From: a virus
Taxonomy: Duplodnaviria > Heunggongvirae > Uroviricota > Caudoviricetes
Length of the DNA: 28,075 nucleotides
IMG/VR virus record: IMGVR_UViG_2585427787_000005
Strand: one strand, 5' to 3'
Both the position numbers and the translations under genes were made by a program. The notes under the pieces are model-generated. The model was not told the DNA's origin and did no database searches. It saw nothing but the letters and a program-made list of their open reading frames with translations. Numbering within the stretch: the stretch's first letter is position 1; every line of letters begins with the position of its first letter. This document shows, in pieces, positions 2,523 through 28,075 of the stretch.

Positions 2523-5080
2523 CGTCCACCTCCGGAGAACAGGCCACCATCACGCATCTGTGTCTGAATTTCATCACGGGCACCCTTGCGGGCCATGTCA
2601 TACACTGCCTTCATCATCTGTGGACCTGGCAGACCATTCGTACCGTCGTTCTGAATCACCACGTGATTGTTCTGATTAAAATTAATGCCTTCAGCCCGCC
2701 GCATCTGCGCCGGACTTCCGGCACCGCCCACATAACCACCTTCCGCATAGCCCCGCATCAGGCGGTACAGGTTGCCCACGCCAATCCGGCTGGTTGCCTC
2801 CTTCGTGAAGACAAACTCACCACGGTGAACAATCCCCGCTGGCTCATATTTGCCGCCGGTTCCCGTAAATCCTCCGGTCGCAAAATGGAATTTCGCCGCA
2901 GCGGCCTGAATGGCTGTACCGCCTGACGCGGATGCGCCGCCACCAACAGCCCCGCCAATGGCGCTGCCGATACTCCCGACAATCCCCACCATTGCCTGCT
3001 TAAGCAGAATTTCTGTCATCATGGACAGCACGGAACGGGTGAAGCTGCGCCAGTTCTGCTCACTGCCGGTCAGCATCGCCGCCATATTCTGCGCAATACC
3101 ATCAAAGGTCTGCGCGGCTGCACTTTTAACCTGCGACATACTGTCCGTGGCGCTCTCTTCCCACTCACACCAGCCGGACTTCAGGCCTGCCATCCAGTTC
3201 CCGCGAAGCTGGTCTTCAGCCGCCCAGGTCTTTTTCTGCTCTGACATGACGTTATTCAGCGCCAGCGGATTATCGCCATACTGTTCCTTCAGGCGCTGTT
3301 CCGTGGCTTCCCGTTCTGCCTGCCGGTCAGTCACCCCCCGGCTTTTCGCATCAATGGCGGCCCGTTTTGCCCGTTGCTGCTGTGCGAATTTATCCGCCTG
3401 CTGCGCCAGCGCGTTCAGGCGCTCCTGATACGTAACCTTGTCGCCAAGTGCAGCCAGCTGGCGTTTGTACTCCAGCGTCTCATCTTTATGCGCCAGCAGG
3501 GATTTCTCCTGTGCGGATAGCTGGCGACGTTGTGCCGCCTCCTCCAGTACCGCGAACTGATTTTCAGCCTTCCACAAATCCCGGCGCTGCTGGCTGATTT
3601 TCTCATTCGCTCCGGCATGCTTCTCCAGCGTCCGGAGTTCTGCCTGAAGCGTCAGCAGGGCAGCATGAGCACTGTCTTCCTGACGATCGCCCGCAGACAC
3701 TTTCACGCCGGACTGTTTCGGCTTTTTCAGCGTCGCTTCATAGTCCTTTTTCGCCGCCGCCATCAGCGTGTTGTAATCTGCCTGCAGAATTTTCCCGTCC
3801 TTCAGTGCCTTGTTCAGTTCTTCCTGACGGGCGGTATATTTCTCCAGCGGCGTCTGCAGGCGTTCATAAGCCTTCTGCGCCTCTTCGGTATATTTCAGCC
3901 GTGACGCTTCGGTATCGCTCTGCTGCTGCGCATTTTTGTCCTGTTGAGTCTGCTGCTCAGCCTTCTTTCGGGCGGCTTCAAGCGCAAGACGGGCCTTTTC
4001 ACGATCATCCCAGTAACGCGCCCGCGCTTCATCGTTAACAAAATAATCATCCTTGCGCAGATTCCAGATGTCGTCTGCTTTCTTAAACGCAGCCTCTGCC
4101 TTAATCAGCATCTCCTGCGCGGTATCAGGACGACCAATATCCAGCACCGCATCCCACATGGATTTGAATGCCCGTGCTGTCCTGTCTGCCCAGGTCTCCA
4201 GCGTGCCCATGTTCTCTTTCAGGCGGCGGGTCTGGTCATCAAACCCTTTCGTTGCGGCCTCGTTCGCCGCCTGCAATGCCCCGGCTTCATCGCCGGAACG
4301 CTGCAACTGAGCAACATACGCAATCTGCTCCGCCGTCACGTTATGGAACTGGCGTGCCATCGCCGTCAGCCCCGACGTCGGGTCTGTGGTCAGCTTCCCG
4401 AAGGCTTCAGCGACCTTGTCCACCTCCACGCCGGATGCAGAGGAGAAACGCGCCACACTCTGGCTGATGGACGCAATCTGAGCCTCACCGCTTACCCCCG
4501 CCTTAACCAGTGCGCTGAGTGACTCGCTGGTCTGGTTAAACGTCAGCCCTGCCGCCTGCCCGGCTCTGGACAGGGCCAGAATACGATCTGCCGTCAGTCC
4601 CGCCTGATTGCCGGAAAGGACCAGCGTTTTGTTGAAATCGGACAGGGTTGAGTTGCCCTGATACCAGGCATACGCCAGCGCACCGGTCGCCACCGCCAGC
4701 GAGGTGGCCCCCACCATCGGCAGGGTGATCGCACCGGCAAGCCCCCTGAACATGGGGATCATCCCGCCGAAGGAGTCCTTAACCTGACCCCCCTGTTGCA
4801 GCAGGATCAGCCACGGACTTTGCCCGCCTGCAAGCTGCGTGGCCACGTCGGTGAACTGTGCAGGCAGCATACGCATGGCGGCTTTATACTGCCCGACGGA
4901 AATCCCCGCTTTCTGTGCAGCCAGCGCCTGTCGGCTCAGCGACTGTTCAACGACTGCCGCTGTTTTTTTCGCATCAGTTTCCGTACCGGAAAAATGACGC
5001 CTGACTCTGGCCATCTGCTCGTCAAATCTGGCCGCATCCAGACTTAAATCAACGACCAGATCGCCTACCGGTTCAGCCAT
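2519..5080 (-). CDS. H: Tail tape-measure protein H
   Basis: 853-aa ORF MAEPVGDLVVDLSLDAARFDEQMARVRRHF, the same length as lambda gpH. Long coiled-coil middle and Gly-rich C-terminal region. Confidence 0.95.
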   Translation of the reverse strand: MAEPVGDLVVDLSLDAARFDEQMARVRRHFSGTETDAKKTAAVVEQSLSRQALAAQKAGISVGQYKAAMRMLPAQFTDVATQLAGGQSPWLILLQQGGQVKDSFGGMIPMFRGLAGAITLPMVGATSLAVATGALAYAWYQGNSTLSDFNKTLVLSGNQAGLTADRILALSRAGQAAGLTFNQTSESLSALVKAGVSGEAQIASISQSVARFSSASGVEVDKVAEAFGKLTTDPTSGLTAMARQFHNVTAEQIAYVAQLQRSGDEAGALQAANEAATKGFDDQTRRLKENMGTLETWADRTARAFKSMWDAVLDIGRPDTAQEMLIKAEAAFKKADDIWNLRKDDYFVNDEARARYWDDREKARLALEAARKKAEQQTQQDKNAQQQSDTEASRLKYTEEAQKAYERLQTPLEKYTARQEELNKALKDGKILQADYNTLMAAAKKDYEATLKKPKQSGVKVSAGDRQEDSAHAALLTLQAELRTLEKHAGANEKISQQRRDLWKAENQFAVLEEAAQRRQLSAQEKSLLAHKDETLEYKRQLAALGDKVTYQERLNALAQQADKFAQQQRAKRAAIDAKSRGVTDRQAEREATEQRLKEQYGDNPLALNNVMSEQKKTWAAEDQLRGNWMAGLKSGWCEWEESATDSMSQVKSAAAQTFDGIAQNMAAMLTGSEQNWRSFTRSVLSMMTEILLKQAMVGIVGSIGSAIGGAVGGGASASGGTAIQAAAAKFHFATGGFTGTGGKYEPAGIVHRGEFVFTKEATSRIGVGNLYRLMRGYAEGGYVGGAGSPAQMRRAEGINFNQNNHVVIQNDGTNGLPGPQMMKAVYDMARKGARDEIQTQMRDGGLFSGGGR

Positions 5081-16011: not shown

Positions 16012-16373
16012 ACATCCCGGTTTCTTCCACCATCGCACCGGAAAAGCGACTATGAGGGTAACCCTGCGTCTGTCAGCACAGTAAAACCCGGTGTGCATCG
16101 TTTTTGATTATTCCCGCACACTCACGCAGAAGGAATTCCCCGTCGGGCTACGGTCATGGTTAATGCGGGAATACGGCGACGATACAGCGCAGCTAAAAGG
16201 GTAATAGACGGATAGACCGGTTTATTTCATTCCACAGGATTCTGAGTGTCCCCAACTTCCTCCAATAGTCTGAGCGTACACCTATATAGTTTTAATTTTC
16301 ATCAATCCATTTAACTATCGTTTAATTGTTGTCACATAGGATTCTGCCGTTTTTAACAATGCAGGATAATAAG

Positions 16374-16667
16374 ATGAAAAAAATGTTGTTTTCTGCCGCT
16401 CTGGCAATGCTTATTACAGGATGTGCTCAACAGACGTTTACTGTTGGAAACAAACCGACAGCAGTAACACCAAAGGAAACCATCACCCATCACTTCTTCG
16501 TTTCGGGAATTGGACAGGAGAAAACTGTTGATGCAGCCAAAATTTGTGGCGGCGCAGAAAATGTTGTTAAAACAGAAACCCAGCAAACATTCGTAAATGG
16601 ATTGCTCGGTTTTATTACTTTAGGCATTTATACTCCGCTGGAAGCGCGTGTGTATTGCTCACAATAA
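16374..16667 (+). CDS. bor: Bor lipoprotein (serum-resistance-associated outer-membrane lipoprotein)
   Basis: 97 aa from MKKMLFSAALAMLITGCAQQTFTV with lipobox LITGC, recalled lambda Bor. ATG at 16374; the longer ORF-track start is an upstream extension. Convergent with Rz as in lambda. Confidence 0.92.
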   Translation: MKKMLFSAALAMLITGCAQQTFTVGNKPTAVTPKETITHHFFVSGIGQEKTVDAAKICGGAENVVKTETQQTFVNGLLGFITLGIYTPLEARVYCSQ

Positions 16668-18458: not shown

Positions 18459-19541
18459 ATGAAAAAATTAACAGTGGCAATTTCTGCTGTAGCTGCATCA
18501 GTACTGATGGCGATGTCTGCTCAGGCAGCTGAAATTTATAATAAAGACAGTAACAAGCTGGATCTGTACGGGAAAGTTAATGCTAAGCACTACTTCTCCT
18601 CTAATGATGCAGATGATGGTGATACTACTTATGCCCGTCTTGGCTTCAAAGGTGAAACCCAAATCAACGATCAACTGACTGGTTTCGGTCAGTGGGAATA
18701 TGAATTCAAAGGCAACCGCGCTGAATCTCAAGGTTCCTCCAAAGATAAAACCCGTCTTGCCTTCGCTGGCCTGAAATTCGGTGACTACGGCTCCATCGAT
18801 TACGGCCGTAACTACGGTGTAGCATACGACATCGGTGCGTGGACTGACGTCCTGCCAGAATTCGGTGGTGACACTTGGACTCAAACAGATGTGTTCATGA
18901 CTGGTCGCACCACTGGTGTTGCAACTTATCGTAACAACGACTTCTTTGGTCTGGTTGATGGTCTGAACTTTGCTGCTCAGTATCAGGGTAAAAATGACCG
19001 CACTGACGTAACTGAAGCTAATGGTGATGGTTTCGGTTTCTCCACTACTTATGAGTATGAAGGATTCGGTGTAGGTGCAACCTATGCTAAATCTGATCGC
19101 ACTAATAATCAGGTTATCTACGGTAACAACGGTCTGAATGCTTCTGGTCAAAATGCTGAAGTATGGGCAGCTGGTCTGAAATATGATGCGAACAACATCT
19201 ATCTGGCCACCACCTATTCTGAAACCCAGAACATGACTGTTTTTGGTAATAACCATATTGCCAACAAAGCACAAAACTTCGAAGCTGTTGCACAATATCA
19301 GTTCGACTTCGGCCTGCGTCCATCCGTTGCTTACCTGCATTCTAAAGGAAAAGACTTGGGTGTTTGGGGTGATCAGGACCTGGTTGAATATGTTGATGTA
19401 GGTGCAACCTATTACTTCAACAAAAATATGTCCACTTTTGTTGACTACAAAATCAACCTGATTGATAAGAGCGATTTCACGAAAGCATCTGGCGTTGCTA
19501 CCGATGATATCGTTGCTGTAGGTATGGTTTACCAGTTCTAA
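18459..19541 (+). CDS. nmpC: Outer-membrane porin of the OmpC/NmpC/Lc family (lysogenic-conversion moron between Q and S)
   Basis: 360-aa ORF with signal peptide [23 protein letters not shown] followed by [16 protein letters not shown] and C-terminal ...VAVGMVYQF, the classic porin terminal Phe. Opposite strand to the late genes, in the position of DLP12 nmpC / PA-2 lc. Confidence 0.93.
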
Positions 19542-22542: not shown

Positions 22543-23151
22543 TTATTGCAACAGATTCTGACGGAAATATGGTAACACACGACTCCACTTATCATCCTGC
22601 CACGGTTGGAATTTTACATGCGCCGTTTCTCTGGCAAGGATTTCTCGCGCCCTGTTGAGTATCCGAGGATATTCTTGTTCGATTGAAGTGAATCTACCTG
22701 CTTCGCGATGCTCTGCGACCTGAAGAAGGGGCGTAACGTTCTGGCAGGCGGTTAACATCGTATCACTTGCTCGCCATAACCAGGCGAGTGTGCAAAGTTC
22801 GTTATCAGTGAATTGTTTTGTGATTGGGGATTGTTGAACTTCTCGATCGAGAATATCCAGAACCCAGCGGCGGAATTCTTTGGCCACAGGAGTACGAGCA
22901 AACATGGCGATCAAATGGGCTCCGCGAAGGCTAAATACTCGAGACTCCTGCATTCCACGAGGGGTGGTCACTTTGACCACCCTTGTCATCATATCTGTGA
23001 ATTCATCTGAGTGCCGAGAGTAAATGCGCTGAACTGCTTTATCGTCCGCATATTCCAGTGCTAAACCAACTTCAGTGGCAGTAAGCCAAATTCTGTTATT
23101 GTGGCAAATCGGGGTAAACGTCGTTTTGTGGAATGCTAATTGAGTAGTCAT
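22543..23151 (-). CDS. Bro-N-like domain protein (antirepressor / Roi-like family candidate)
   Basis: 202-aa ORF MTTQLAFHKTTFTPICHNNRIWLTATEVGLALEYADDKAVQRIYSRHSDEF...RVFSLRGAHLIAMFARTPVAKEFRRWVLDIL. Matches the recalled Bro-N consensus pattern (W-x-x-A-x-[DE]-V-x-x-x-L, then S-E-x-G-[LV]-Y-x-L-I, then A-x-x-F-x-x-W-V). Family assignment is by eye. Confidence 0.65.
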   Translation of the reverse strand: MTTQLAFHKTTFTPICHNNRIWLTATEVGLALEYADDKAVQRIYSRHSDEFTDMMTRVVKVTTPRGMQESRVFSLRGAHLIAMFARTPVAKEFRRWVLDILDREVQQSPITKQFTDNELCTLAWLWRASDTMLTACQNVTPLLQVAEHREAGRFTSIEQEYPRILNRAREILARETAHVKFQPWQDDKWSRVLPYFRQNLLQ

Positions 23152-23414
23152 AGTATCACCTCATCAGGTTAACCATCACCACCAACGACGCCAATCGACT
23201 GGTGGTGAACTGTGTAAGGTTGGCGTAACCGGCTACTCAAACCCGGCGCTTCCGAAGAAGCCCTCACACAGCCCACCATAATTTGGGCATAGCCGTGCTT
23301 AGCGCACAAAAAAACCGCTTAACGCGGTATGCGTTGAGTAGTATCCCGGGACGCCAATCCCGTGTGCCGATTTTGCGGCAACGCACAGAATATAGCGCCG
23401 GATAAATCATGTCG

Positions 23415-23504
23415 TCAACCCCAGTAAATGGACACCATGATGATCACAGCCATAGCTGCTACAACAGTTACAACTACCTCAGGCCAAAACATAACGATTT
23501 CCAT
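23415..23504 (-). CDS. Candidate small hydrophobic peptide (29 aa; alternative 25-aa start at 23492)
   Basis: Minus-strand ORF ATG GAA ATC GTT ATG TTT TGG... gives MEIVMFWPEVVVTVVAAMAVIIMVSIYWG, a single transmembrane-like helix. AAGGTGA lies just upstream. Immediately downstream of repeat copy B. Below the ORF-track cutoff. Confidence 0.3.
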   Translation of the reverse strand: MEIVMFWPEVVVTVVAAMAVIIMVSIYWG

Positions 23505-23570
23505 ATCACCTTTAGCCGCCAGACGAATAGAGACTCCCAATTCTGGCTGTCGAAGTAAAACACCGAATGT

Positions 23571-23655
23571 AAAAAATCGTAGGTGCATTTCTGCATCTGT
23601 GAATGGAGATGAGAGTTTGGATTGTGTGTGCGCATAAACGTCCCCGTTTAGCGCA
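23571..23655. repeat. 85-bp direct repeat, copy B
   Basis: AAAAAATCGTAGGTGCATTTCTGCATCTGTGAATGGAGATGAGAGTTTGGATTGTGTGTGCGCATAAACGTCCCCGTTTAGCGCA. See copy A. Confidence 0.9.
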
Positions 23656-23963
23656 ACCCCACCACCGGGTGTTCAGGCCGACAGTAACTATATTATTCCC
23701 TACTGATTTTTGAAAATCAAAGGTCTTTATACGTCACACGAGAGCAAATATTTCCGAAGAAGAAACCTTTCGCCTTGAAAGGATAAAGAGTTCATTTCAT
23801 AAATTGAAATATTCAATAAGAATATTGCAAAAAATGAAATTATTTACTAGCGAGTCTATCTAACTGATAATTATGAAGATTGTAAGCGGTAGCAATCACC
23901 CGCATACACATTGAACAGGATTTAATACAAAACGTCTTAAATTGTCCGTAAGGAATAGCACGA

Positions 23964-25466
23964 ATGACTCAAACTCCTCTATTACTTGCAATCATATTTT
24001 TATTGGTTGTTCTTGTTCTTTATATAGCTGCAATCAAACGCATCAAAAAAATACAATTAGAATTAAGTGATAGCAATCAAAAAAATGAAGAATACAAATC
24101 TCGCTTTGCAGATTATTTTAATGTAGAAGAAGAATGTAAGAAGCTTATTGAGAAAACAGAGCAAGAATGCTCCATAATAAAAGAAGAATCCCTAAAAGTA
24201 AAAGAAAATGCCAATAATGAACTAACAAACACCATTGAAAAAATGGATGGTATCAATAAACAAATCCAAGAGCTAAGAAGAACTTATAAAGAGAAGAAAG
24301 AAATATATGATAAACTAGTAAGGCAAATTTCTATTTATTCAGAAGATGTTGAGCTAGCCGAACTAGGATTTTACGAACCTCATTTTAATTTTGAAGATTC
24401 AGAGCAATTTAAAAACAAAATAAAATCCATCAGGGATGAACAGAAATTAATGCTGCGGGATAAAACCCACTCTGGCGCAGTATATTGTACAACCCAATGG
24501 ACTGTTGAAGGCTCTCGAGCAGAGGGTAAAAAAATGACAGACAGAAATATCAGGCTAACTACTAGAGCATTTAATAATGAATGTGATGCTGCAATTAGCA
24601 ATTGCACGTGGAAAAACATCACTAAAATGGAAGAACGCATCACAAAGGCATTTGAGGCCATAAATAAACTAAACGAGCAAAATCACATATATATAAACAC
24701 TAAATACCTCAATAAAAAACTTGAGGAATTGTGGCTTACCCATGAATATCGTGAGCAAAAACAGAAAGAAAAAGAAGAACAGGCAGAAATAAGGGCACAA
24801 ATGAGAGAGGAGGAGCGTGCACAACGAGAAATAGAAAAGGCCATGCAAGACGCAGAGGCAGAAGAGCGCCGTTATAAAAAAGCAATTGAAGCTGCAAGAA
24901 AGGAAATGGAAAAAGTTACTGGTGACATGAAGCAGCGCCTCGAAAATCGCATTGCCGAACTAGAACAGAGTTTGTCGCAGGCTGAATCAAAGCATCAAAG
25001 AGCATTATCCATGGCACAACAAACCAAACAAGGTCATGTTTATATTATTTCGAACATAGGTTCTTTTGGGGAGAATGTTTATAAAATAGGCATGACACGA
25101 CGTCTTGATCCGCAAGACCGTGTAAATGAGCTCGGTGATGCATCTGTTCCTTTTATTTTTGATGTACATGCCATGATTTATTCGGAGGACGCTCCATCAT
25201 TAGAAAAAAAACTACATGATGTCTTCGATAAAAAGAGAGTCAATCTTGTAAATCGTAGAAAAGAGTTTTTCTATGTTACTCTGGATGAGATCAAAGAAGC
25301 TGTTAAAAAACACTCTGATTCAGAAATTGAATTTATTGAGACAGCAGTCGCAAAAGACTTTAATGAGTCATTGGCTATTCGTAATCATGAAAATAAAAAA
25401 AGTGACAACAGCAACTCATCAATTATACCTGAGCGAAAAACCCCAGAGTTTGCAGATGCAATTTAA
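23964..25466 (+). CDS. AT-rich cargo protein (500 aa): N-terminal transmembrane anchor, coiled-coil segments, central DUF4041-like region and C-terminal GIY-YIG-like (T5orf172-type) putative nuclease domain
   Basis: ORF MTQTPLLLAIIFLLVVLVLYIAAIKRIKK (transmembrane helix). Lys/Glu-rich coiled coils (e.g. EYREQKQKEKEEQAEIRAQMREEERAQREIEKAM). C-terminal GHVYIISNIGSFGENVYKIGMTRRLDPQDRVNELGDASVPFIFDVHAMIYSEDAPSLEKKLH has GIY-YIG-like spacing (VYI...10 aa...YKIG, then Arg, then Glu). Composition is visibly AT-rich against the flanking phage DNA, and the gene is on the opposite strand. Domain names are from recall. Confidence 0.85.
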   Translation: MTQTPLLLAIIFLLVVLVLYIAAIKRIKKIQLELSDSNQKNEEYKSRFADYFNVEEECKKLIEKTEQECSIIKEESLKVKENANNELTNTIEKMDGINKQIQELRRTYKEKKEIYDKLVRQISIYSEDVELAELGFYEPHFNFEDSEQFKNKIKSIRDEQKLMLRDKTHSGAVYCTTQWTVEGSRAEGKKMTDRNIRLTTRAFNNECDAAISNCTWKNITKMEERITKAFEAINKLNEQNHIYINTKYLNKKLEELWLTHEYREQKQKEKEEQAEIRAQMREEERAQREIEKAMQDAEAEERRYKKAIEAARKEMEKVTGDMKQRLENRIAELEQSLSQAESKHQRALSMAQQTKQGHVYIISNIGSFGENVYKIGMTRRLDPQDRVNELGDASVPFIFDVHAMIYSEDAPSLEKKLHDVFDKKRVNLVNRRKEFFYVTLDEIKEAVKKHSDSEIEFIETAVAKDFNESLAIRNHENKKSDNSNSSIIPERKTPEFADAI

Positions 25467-25714
25467 TTAATTTGTAGTAGCAATAAAGCAGGCATCGTTG
25501 AGAATATTTTGTCAGCGATGCTTACTTCTCTAACAAAAACGGTGATTACCAACGAACTAACGGACTTCAGGTAATCATAAGACAAATGGAACGACTCTCC
25601 GGTGATTAGATCCCTGCAATAACAGTAATTTTCTACTAACTGAAAAATCTTTAACTGCCGCTCCTATTTCTAAGCTGACTGCTAGATTACATGGTGTGTT
25701 ACCGATGAAAACCG

Positions 25715-26017
25715 TCACAGCAAGTTTAAGTTCATATCTCCATACACTGCCAACACTCGTTTCATCGCGGCACTCTGGCGACACTCCTTGAAAATCAGAT
25801 TCGTGCTCACCTTTCCTTCCCGTTCTTCCCTGGTAGCGAACCGGTAATACACCGTTCGCCAGACCTTACCATCAACGACCAAGATTCCTGCCCGTGCCAT
25901 TTTAGCCGCAGCCTGATTTATACTGGTTACTGTTGCGCCTGTTACCGCAGCAACGTCCTGCGCACAGAAGCTCTTATGCGTCCCCAGGTAATGAATAATT
26001 GCCTCTTTGCCCGTCAT
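25715..26017 (-). CDS. ren: Ren (Rex-exclusion escape protein)
   Basis: 100-aa ORF MTGKEAIIHYLGTHKSFCAQDVAAVTGATVTSINQAAAKMARAGILVVDGKVWRTVYYRFATREEREGK, recalled lambda Ren with a divergent C-terminus. Overlaps the P stop. Confidence 0.88.
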   Translation of the reverse strand: MTGKEAIIHYLGTHKSFCAQDVAAVTGATVTSINQAAAKMARAGILVVDGKVWRTVYYRFATREEREGKVSTNLIFKECRQSAAMKRVLAVYGDMNLNLL

Positions 26018-26715
26018 ACAGTTGCTCCTTTCAGTCCGAACTTCGCTTTGATTTCTGCGATCTTCGCCAGAGCCTGTGCACGATTTAGAGGTCTACCGCC
26101 CATGACAGGAAGTTGTTTTACTGGTTCAGGTATCGCCTCACCACGGTTAATTCGCGCGGTCATACAAGTCAGTTCATCGGCAGCCTTGCGCCGTAATTCC
26201 GCATCAGTAAGCGCATTGGCCCGCATGTTCTGATACAGGTTGGTAACCAGCCAGTAGTGCGCGTTTGATTTCCACGGATAAGACTCTGCATCTGGATACA
26301 GGCCACGTTTCCGGCAATACTCGTAAACCATATCAACCAGCTCGCTGGCGTTTGGCAGCCCGGCGGTAACGGATGCTTCTTCCCGGCACCAGGCAACAAA
26401 CTGCCCGGGTGATGGCAGGAATGGTCGATTCTGCCGACGGGCTACGCGCATTCCTGCGTCAACCTGTTCCATCGTGGTGATCCCGTTTTCCCGGAAAGCC
26501 AGAACCCACTGGCGGCGGATTTCGTTCAGTTCGTTCTGGTCCCGGTTAGCCAGGCTCGCCGGGAAAGTTGCCAGTAACTGGCTGAACACACCATTGATGA
26601 TCTGCGCTACCTGTTGTACCTGCGGCTTTTCGTCGTACTGTTCCGGCATGTTGTTGGCGATCCGGCGCATCTGCTCACGGTCAAAGTTAACCATCTGTGC
26701 GGCGATGTTTTTCAT
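26014..26715 (-). CDS. P: Replication protein P (DnaB helicase loader)
   Basis: 233-aa ORF MKNIAAQMVNFDREQMRRIANNMPEQYDEKPQVQQVAQIINGVFSQL, the same length as lambda P. Confidence 0.93.
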   Translation of the reverse strand: MKNIAAQMVNFDREQMRRIANNMPEQYDEKPQVQQVAQIINGVFSQLLATFPASLANRDQNELNEIRRQWVLAFRENGITTMEQVDAGMRVARRQNRPFLPSPGQFVAWCREEASVTAGLPNASELVDMVYEYCRKRGLYPDAESYPWKSNAHYWLVTNLYQNMRANALTDAELRRKAADELTCMTARINRGEAIPEPVKQLPVMGGRPLNRAQALAKIAEIKAKFGLKGATV

Positions 26716-27641
26716 AAATCCACCCCGTAAATCCAGTCAGTGTTTGTCAGGTCGAGTTTTGATTTTCCGGCTATCACGCCAGCCTGTTGCTTGTTACGGT
26801 TGATTTCGAGTTGGGTCCACTTGTCGCGGAGTTTGGCCGGACTTAGCACGTTACCGGACCAGAAGTTGTCCTGGCATGCCCAGCGGAACAGCACGCACAT
26901 GTCGCGGTGGTTACGGCCGTCACGTTCACGCATCAGGCGGATATCGTTAGCCCACCCTGCAAAATTCGGTTTTCTGGCTGATGGCGCGATGGTCTTCACC
27001 ATGTCAAACATCCACTCTGCGGCGGTCAGGTCTTCTGCTGTCCCCCACCTGCTGCCGCTCTGAATTGCAGCATCTGGTTTCTCCACAGGAAGATCGTTTT
27101 CTGGTTGGTCAGAGGATTCGCCAGAATTCTCGGACGAAAAAGGTTTTATATTGTCTTTTGTTAGTTTGTCTTTTGTGTTTACCTGATTCGGGTAAGTGCC
27201 TTTACCTGATTTGGGTAAACTTTTCTTACCTGATTCAGGTAAATTTACCTCTTTCAGGTAAACTTTATTTTTCTTACCTGATTCGGGTAATGTTGACCAT
27301 TCACTGACCACATTATTAATGCCGATATTCCGCCCGCTCTGAATAAAAATCCCACGCTTTACCAGAACACTTTTTGCAGCAGAACACTTGTGCGGCAATA
27401 TCCCGGTCAACTCGGAAAGTTGCTCGTTGCTCACCCAATCCAGTTTTTTATTAAAGCCATATGTTTTGCGCATGACAGCCAGGAAGACCAGAAGCTGGTG
27501 CTGTGTTAATCCGGCCAGCATCACAGCTTCCAGCAACTCATTTGCAATGCGCGTATAACCATCATCGAGATCTGCCACGCGCGGCTCCTTTTGTGCCGCA
27601 TCCGGCACTGGAAAATTGAATATCTCAGCAGTGTTTGCCAT
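26712..27641 (-). CDS. O: Replication initiator O (divergent N-terminal DNA-binding half, lambda-like C-terminal P-interaction half)
   Basis: 309-aa ORF MANTAEIFNFPVPDAAQKEPRVADLDDGY... with C-terminal ...EWMFDMVKTIAPSARKPNFAGWANDIRLMRERDGRNHRDMCVLFRWACQDNFWSGNVLSPAKLRDKWTQLEINRNKQQAG matching recalled lambda O. GGGAGGAA ribosome-binding site. Contains the ori iterons. Confidence 0.92.
   Translation of the reverse strand: MANTAEIFNFPVPDAAQKEPRVADLDDGYTRIANELLEAVMLAGLTQHQLLVFLAVMRKTYGFNKKLDWVSNEQLSELTGILPHKCSAAKSVLVKRGIFIQSGRNIGINNVVSEWSTLPESGKKNKVYLKEVNLPESGKKSLPKSGKGTYPNQVNTKDKLTKDNIKPFSSENSGESSDQPENDLPVEKPDAAIQSGSRWGTAEDLTAAEWMFDMVKTIAPSARKPNFAGWANDIRLMRERDGRNHRDMCVLFRWACQDNFWSGNVLSPAKLRDKWTQLEINRNKQQAGVIAGKSKLDLTNTDWIYGVDL
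27120..27279. repeat. Lambdoid replication origin inside O: five 17-bp palindromic iterons plus adjacent AT-rich region
   Basis: Iterons TTACCTGATTCGGGTAA (27168..27184), TTACCTGATTTGGGTAA (27191..27207), TTACCTGATTCAGGTAA (27215..27231), TTACCTCTTTCAGGTAA (27234..27250), TTACCTGATTCGGGTAA (27263..27279). AT-rich tract 27120..27167 with repeated TGTCTTTTGT. Confidence 0.88.
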
Positions 27642-27676
27642 AATTCCTCCCGCAATGAGTGTGTTACGATTTGCAC

Positions 27677-28075
27677 GGCTTTGTTGAATAAATCGAACTT
27701 TTGCTGAGTTGAAGGATCAGATCACGCATCTTCCCGACAACGCAGACCGTTCCGTGGCAAAGCAAAAGTTCAAAATCACCAACTGGCCCACCTACAATAA
27801 AGCCCTCATCAACCGTGGCTCCATAACTTTCTGGCTGGATGATGAAGCCATTCAGGCCTGGTATGAGTCGACAACGCCTTCATCACGGGGAAGACCTCAG
27901 CGCTATTCTGATCTCGCCATCACCACCGTTCTGGTCATTAAACGCGTGTTCAGGTTGACCCTGCGGGCTGCACAGGGTTTTATTGATTCCATTTTTACAC
28001 TGATGAATGTTCCGTTGCGCTGCCCGGATTACACCAGTGTCAGCAAGCGCGCAAAGTCGGTTAATGTCAGTTTCA
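27677..28075 (+). mobile_element. IS903-group (IS5 family) insertion sequence, left end only; element continues beyond the window
   Basis: Terminal inverted repeat GGCTTTGTTGAATAAATC at 27677..27694, followed by sequence recalled from IS903/Tn903 ends (CGAACTTTTGCTGAGTTGAAGGATCAGATCACGCATCTTCCCGACAACGCAGACCGTTCC). An open frame with no stop runs to the window edge. Confidence 0.8.
27709..28075 (+). CDS. IS903-type DDE transposase, N-terminal part (start codon uncertain, possibly TTG at 27709; truncated by window end)
   Basis: Frame from 27721 translates ITHLPDNADRSVAKQKFKITNWPTYNKALINRGSITFWLDDEAIQAWYESTTPSSRGRPQRYSDLAITTVLVIKRVFRLTLRAAQGFIDSIF... without stops. No ATG upstream in frame. Not in the ORF track because it lacks a stop. 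Confidence 0.7.
   Translation, partial: MKDQITHLPDNADRSVAKQKFKITNWPTYNKALINRGSITFWLDDEAIQAWYESTTPSSRGRPQRYSDLAITTVLVIKRVFRLTLRAAQGFIDSIFTLMNVPLRCPDYTSVSKRAKSVNVSF

Follow-up and report, generated by a model that had tools for sequence, protein, structure and literature searches.

An IS903-group insertion sequence 35 bp upstream of the replication gene O in a lambda-like prophage

The window analysed here is the whole of contig JORH01000126.1 (28,075 bp) of draft assembly GCA_000713095.1, and it carries the replication gene block of a lambda-like prophage, read on the minus strand and followed at its upstream side by one end of an insertion sequence (Table 1). The block has the organization of a lambda-type O/P module in that the Phage_rep_O domain is N-terminal in the O protein, P lies directly downstream, and five origin repeats are placed inside O analogously to the iterons of the lambda origin (annotated in NC_001416). 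The O protein is 66% identical to lambda O, with residue 1 aligned to residue 1, and 100% identical to that of the functional phage PhiR26_1. Moreover, all of positions 23200-27676 is 100% identical to PhiR26_1, and the longer segment 16712-27676 is 99.98% identical to one intact prophage. O and P are both intact, as are the origin repeats and the ribosome-binding site of O, and we regard the replication module as free of decay because it is identical or nearly identical to this phage and to this intact prophage.

Several features lie further from the junction in the same window. The minus-strand segment 23198-23395 matches the Rfam families for C4 antisense RNA (74.8 bits) and isrK (58.7 bits), and its match to the C4 targets a1/b1 (39.6 bits) falls just under the gathering score of that family. 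These matches are situated just upstream of a Bro-N/antirepressor-type gene (22543-23151, minus strand), and the region as a whole looks, from its sequence, like a P1/P7-style antirepressor control module carried by a lambda-like prophage. Between ren and this antirepressor region, on the opposite strand, is a gene for a 500-aa protein with SNIPE, T5orf172 and MUG113 domains (23964-25466, plus strand), which is annotated as PD-lambda-1 in PhiR26_1; this PD-lambda-1-type gene is a candidate anti-phage defence gene. A porin gene (18459-19541, plus strand; Porin_1, 360 aa) separates the lysis genes from the Q antiterminator, and an identical porin protein appears in 2942 blocks of the assembly collection. 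A Bor lipoprotein gene (16326-16667, plus strand) comes after the lysis genes; like the porin gene, it is an accessory gene coded on the other strand from the phage genes. The left end of the contig (positions 1-116) falls right at the beginning of a tail-tip gene, the one next after the lambda I-like gene, and this tail-tip gene is probably another repeat common to other prophages of the same genome.

Table 1. Features of the replication module and of the insertion sequence junction, with window coordinates
Feature	Position	Strand	Basis or remark
ren	25715-26017	-	replication gene block of lambda-like prophage
P, 233 aa, intact	26014-26715	-	Pfam Phage_lambda_P on the identical protein of relatives
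O, 309 aa, intact	26712-27641	-	Pfam Phage_rep_O, E=7.5e-34
Origin iterons, five TTACCTGATTCGGGTAA-like palindromes within O	27178-27290		repeat search
Promoter-like TTGAAT-17-(TGc)CATAAT, placed like lambda pO	27616-27644	+	promoter scan; points into the IS
O leader, 35 nt, with GGAGG ribosome-binding site (27646-27650)	27642-27676	-	same as in intact relatives through 27676
First 25 nt of predicted oop-like RNA	27652-27676	+	start at G27652 by analogy with lambda; remainder displaced by the IS
GATTTGCAC, 9 bp expected to be duplicated in a simple insertion	27668-27676		inferred from copies elsewhere and PMC10513040
Left terminal inverted repeat GGCTTTGTTGAATAAATC	27677-27694		exact; the complete copies examined all carry it inverted at their far end
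IS903-group (IS5 family) IS, left 399 bp of 1057	27677-28075	+	ends at contig end
Transposase, N-terminal 107 codons	27754-28075	+	GTG start of 307-aa form; NCBI start is TTG 27709

The first-pass annotation had placed an IS903-group element 35 bp upstream of the O start codon, and this placement is borne out in full. The 18-bp terminal repeat is exact and occurs only once in the window, its first base being the first base beyond the 35 bp that separate the IS from the O ATG (27641, minus strand). Compared with the beginning of the complete elements of E. coli Z0117EC0133 and TW10690, the 399 bp from there to the end of the contig show 0 mismatches, a match far beyond what chance would give; these complete copies, which are identical to our element over everything that is visible of it, measure 1057 bp and have perfect 18-bp terminal inverted repeats. 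Its terminal repeat is identical to that of IS903, IS903B and IS102, and full copies of this isoform resemble these elements in being 1057 bp long, in coding for a DDE transposase of the IS5 type, and in producing 9-bp duplications at the majority of chromosomal sites. In DNA, however, it is only about 93-95% identical to IS903B and IS102: over the 399 bp present in the window it matches the element that NCBI annotates as IS903B at 93.2% and the IS102 of pSC101 at 93.5%, and full copies are 93-95% identical to both. We therefore reject an assignment to IS903B or IS102 itself, and the sequence comparison identifies the element as an IS903-group isoform that is distinct from either.

The transposase gene is on the plus strand, divergent from O, and has two candidate starts, the TTG at 27709 that is annotated by NCBI (322 aa) and the GTG at 27754 (307 aa). 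The frame is not open from the first base of the element, as had been proposed, because an in-frame stop occupies 27685-27687 and the frame is open only from 27688. The 107 visible residues are hit by Pfam DDE_Tnp_1_5 (E=3.6e-30) and by NCBIfam transpos_IS5_2 (E=1.3e-33). Truncation alone keeps the second match under its cut-off; the full transposase of a complete copy scores 352.7 bits against a cut-off of 140. The catalytic DDE part of the protein lies beyond the window.

As the first-pass annotation also recognised, the other end of the element and any target-site duplication are outside the window, since the contig stops inside the IS. The assembly broke here because the IS is a multi-copy repeat in a short-read assembly; strains related to this one have up to 36 or more places that match the IS of the window. 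A comparison with uninterrupted junctions in relatives, which had been suggested, supports the insertion: alignment with 12 intact loci, including that of the functional phage PhiR26_1, stops exactly at 27676, and in more than 90 intact relatives the homology with the window ceases precisely at 27676|27677. The displaced phage sequence that follows 27676 in the intact relatives is CTGAAAGTCGG..., and the intact loci beyond this point read CTGAAAGTCGGTTCTG... Upstream of O, these relatives encode a 179-aa protein of the YdaT family, which PHROG classes as a 'CII-like transcriptional activator', along with a Cro of the YdaS type and a CI repressor. The earlier naming of the neighbours as cII and cro is refined by this: the CII-like protein belongs to the YdaT family and is not lambda CII, and the Cro is YdaS-type.

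Of 5426 complete E. coli genomes, 2412 contain the O 5' region of this allele, yet the IS junction is missing from all 2412. Similarly, no IS end is found within 1.5 kb of O in any of 80 further viral contigs. The left junction is absent from the viral, species-representative genome and metagenome contigs that were searched, the predicted right junction is absent from the genome contigs searched, and two short open reading frames that span the junction return no record in a protein look-up. The lack of the junction in the 2412 genomes and in the 80 viral contigs marks the event as rare, strain-specific and probably recent. The O leader as an insertion hot spot was considered and rejected, given that an IS is seen there in 0 of about 2400 complete genomes and in 0 of 80 viral contigs.

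The plus strand of the O leader contains a second unit, which the first-pass annotation overlooked. The promoter-like site listed in Table 1 matches the lambda sequence TTGAGT-17-(TGt)CATAAT hexamer for hexamer, and in both phages the -10 element overlaps the ATG of O; by homology, then, this would be a promoter antisense to O that has its -10 over the O start codon. Lambda pO is active even in lysogens, and the lambda oop transcript that it directs is 77 nt long. Transcription of lambda oop begins at position 38675, a coordinate that is consistent with our lambda alignment, and the predicted start in the window would accordingly be G27652. In the intact relatives, the predicted transcript runs for 27 nt and then enters a 14-bp hairpin (+28 to +60; -24.6 kcal/mol, z -3.46), which is followed by a weak U tract (GCCAUUUCUG) except in variants with AUUUUUG. 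This hairpin is kept in all 12 sequence variants recovered from 80 loci, the changes being confined to the loop, a shifted bulge, or G-U wobbles. The wobbles are valid on the plus strand only, and canonical pairing is retained in 166 of 168 cells when the plus strand is scored versus 146 of 168 for the minus strand. No Rfam family matches the oop-like RNA, and lambda itself is likewise unmatched.

The pO-like promoter, together with a hairpin whose wobble pairing holds on the plus strand alone, supports the view that a short oop-like antisense RNA is probably encoded upstream of O. As in lambda, the -10 CATAAT lies over the O start and reads away from O (PMC3985674), and a short transcript that would stop at a strong hairpin in the interval before O is likewise predicted here. 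Whereas lambda oop overlaps cII, the predicted RNA has a weak U tract and would not overlap the upstream coding sequence, ending some 16 nt short of the ydaT stop. At the intact locus L001, for example, the last base of the hairpin is 4512 and the stop codon of ydaT occupies 4529-4531, so that the two would overlap only if transcription passes the hairpin. The IS sits between nucleotides 25 and 26 of the predicted RNA. As a result, the pO-like promoter and the first 25 nt would be retained beside O and would read into the IS in the direction of the transposase, while the hairpin would have been displaced to the far side of the IS, or lost.

We consider it probable that a 1057-bp IS903-group element transposed into the short gap between the ydaT-type CII-like gene and O of an otherwise intact lambda-like prophage. 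Such a simple insertion is the most likely origin of the junction; it would, most likely, have duplicated the 9 bp GATTTGCAC, and it predicts that the right junction reads GATTTATTCAACAAAGCC followed by GATTTGCACCTGAAAGTCGG. Support for this reading is provided by the fact that six of eight chromosomal sites sampled for this IS type in other genomes are simple insertions with a 9-bp duplication. In the best-matching copies, the 9-bp targets resemble GATTTGCAC (for example GCTTCGCAC, ACGTTTCAC, CATATGCGC, and TTATTTCGC), a likeness that is biased in that the matches were ranked partly by flank similarity, and we draw no conclusion about target preference.

The same survey lends some weight to a different and clearly less likely explanation, namely that the junction is the boundary of a rearrangement produced by an IS-mediated adjacent deletion or inversion or by recombination between IS copies, because two of the eight chromosomal copies and both of the plasmid copies examined have no 9-bp duplication. 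If so, ydaT, cro, cI, the recombination genes and the integrase gene would be gone from beside O, the prophage would be a truncated remnant, and O-P would be wholly unexpressible from the prophage's own promoter. Related strains do carry many copies of the IS between which recombination might occur, and IS102 causes adjacent, intramolecular deletions and inversions (PMC9330008, citing Bernardi & Bernardi 1986). Furthermore, in strain ECNB21-M121 an IS903B in the same O allele, and in the same orientation, has no duplication and is flanked on its far side by unrelated prophage genes. On the other hand, the 28 kb in view are free of decay and, close to the junction, match functional phages without a difference, and nothing in the window speaks for deletion over insertion. 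The duplication counts, the ECNB21-M121 case and the rearrangements known for IS102 together set the weight that we give to simple insertion and to rearrangement. In ECNB21-M121 itself (NZ_CP083585.1, 3413-5143), the IS903B is joined to O about 85 codons into the gene, at the equivalent of 27387|27388 in the window, and for the O 5' region this is an IS903-group event independent of the one in the window.

The position of the insertion relative to the O coding sequence depends on where O starts, and annotation of this start is inconsistent, with 339-aa and 309-aa forms being given for the same interval (4442-4532 of locus L001 and its equivalents in many genomes). Were the true start 90 nt further upstream, in an ATGA overlap with ydaT, the IS would interrupt the coding sequence of a 339-aa O. 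The reading frame is indeed open above the ATG at 27641 in the intact relatives, and the longer form is annotated in many records, among them PhiR26_1 and several genomes. Nevertheless, we find the upstream start improbable: residue 1 of the 309-aa protein matches residue 1 of lambda O, a strong GGAGG precedes the ATG at 27641, and other gene callers choose the 309-aa form. In addition, five substitutions were first noted in the extension, three of which alter the amino acid, and the substitutions in the hairpin obey the rules of an RNA hairpin on the opposite strand. Sequence comparison thus favours the start at 27641, and because it does so we place the IS in the O leader rather than in the coding sequence. 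Finally, a chimeric joining of the prophage contig end to reads from an IS elsewhere would fit a draft contig that terminates inside a repeat, but such an artefact is extremely unlikely because the break falls at the exact terminal nucleotide of the IS inverted repeat, as in true transposition junctions, and, in addition, the IS end (GGCTTTG) and the displaced phage bases (CTGAAAG) share no similarity by which they might be joined in error and the same contig is recorded in two samples.

On the favoured reading of a simple insertion, about 1.07 kb of foreign DNA, antisense to the transposase and untranslated, would lie between the early rightward promoter and the O-P-origin segment. The promoter scan finds no outward promoter-like site facing O on the minus strand between 27400 and 28075, and a literature search yields no report of an outward promoter in IS903 or IS102. 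After induction, the synthesis of O and P, as well as transcription of the origin, would then hinge on read-through across the IS. The lambda origin needs pR transcription in cis, and a supply of O and P in trans does not remove this need (PMC3985674); a polar block would therefore strike replication in two ways. This requirement, together with the lack of an outward promoter-like site, makes dependence on read-through and impaired replication plausible. Rho-dependent termination is also plausible in some 1.07 kb of untranslated antisense IS RNA, and no N/nut antitermination system is recognised in the relatives. Weighing against a polar block, no intrinsic terminator is predicted in the whole IS, so that read-through could be substantial. 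Taken together, our analysis suggests that the IS has probably weakened or abolished replication of the prophage.

Events of this kind have long been known. The classical lambda polar mutations r32 (IS2 near the cII-O region) and r14 (IS1 in cII) were reportedly described by Brachet in 1970 and by Hirsch and Fiandt in 1972. In these mutants, and here too on the favoured reading, an IS separates O-P from the early rightward promoter, and polarity cuts the expression of their replication genes; they differ in that other IS families and a lambda-type cII are involved, whereas the window represents a natural prophage with a YdaT-type gene in which polarity is predicted. Where a trapped prophage subjects its host to 'replicative killing', IS2 insertions in lambda P have been recovered among the surviving cells (PMC4926192). 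These are cases of an IS inactivating the lambda-type replication of a resident prophage, an outcome that is selectable since replication kills the host. There, however, the IS is inside P and the phenotype was measured, while the present IS is upstream of an intact O and its effect is predicted. Closer in the type of element is the IS903B at -27/-26 of mgrB in Klebsiella, which silences that gene (PMC10513040). In both instances, an IS903-type element tens of bases before a start codon parts a gene from its promoter, although mgrB is a host gene and the selection there is by colistin.

The IS upstream of O is therefore a real but ordinary event, and one of a kind already known. Its recognition explains the end of the contig and flags the prophage as probably replication-impaired despite a late region that looks complete. 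It also corrects the local annotation, in which the upstream gene is of the YdaT type and not lambda cII, O is best started at 27641, and a probable pO/oop counterpart should be added. More generally, the locus provides a natural example of an IS in the control region of a lambda-type replication module, an event class familiar since the classical lambda polar mutants. A further and rather doubtful proposal is that the insertion did two things at once, uncoupling the replication module from the early promoter and placing the IS transposase under the resident pO counterpart. If this were true, the insertion would be a domesticating lesion, which would spare the host prophage replication while its defence and surface genes are kept, and the supply of transposase in the strain would be driven or modulated by the prophage.
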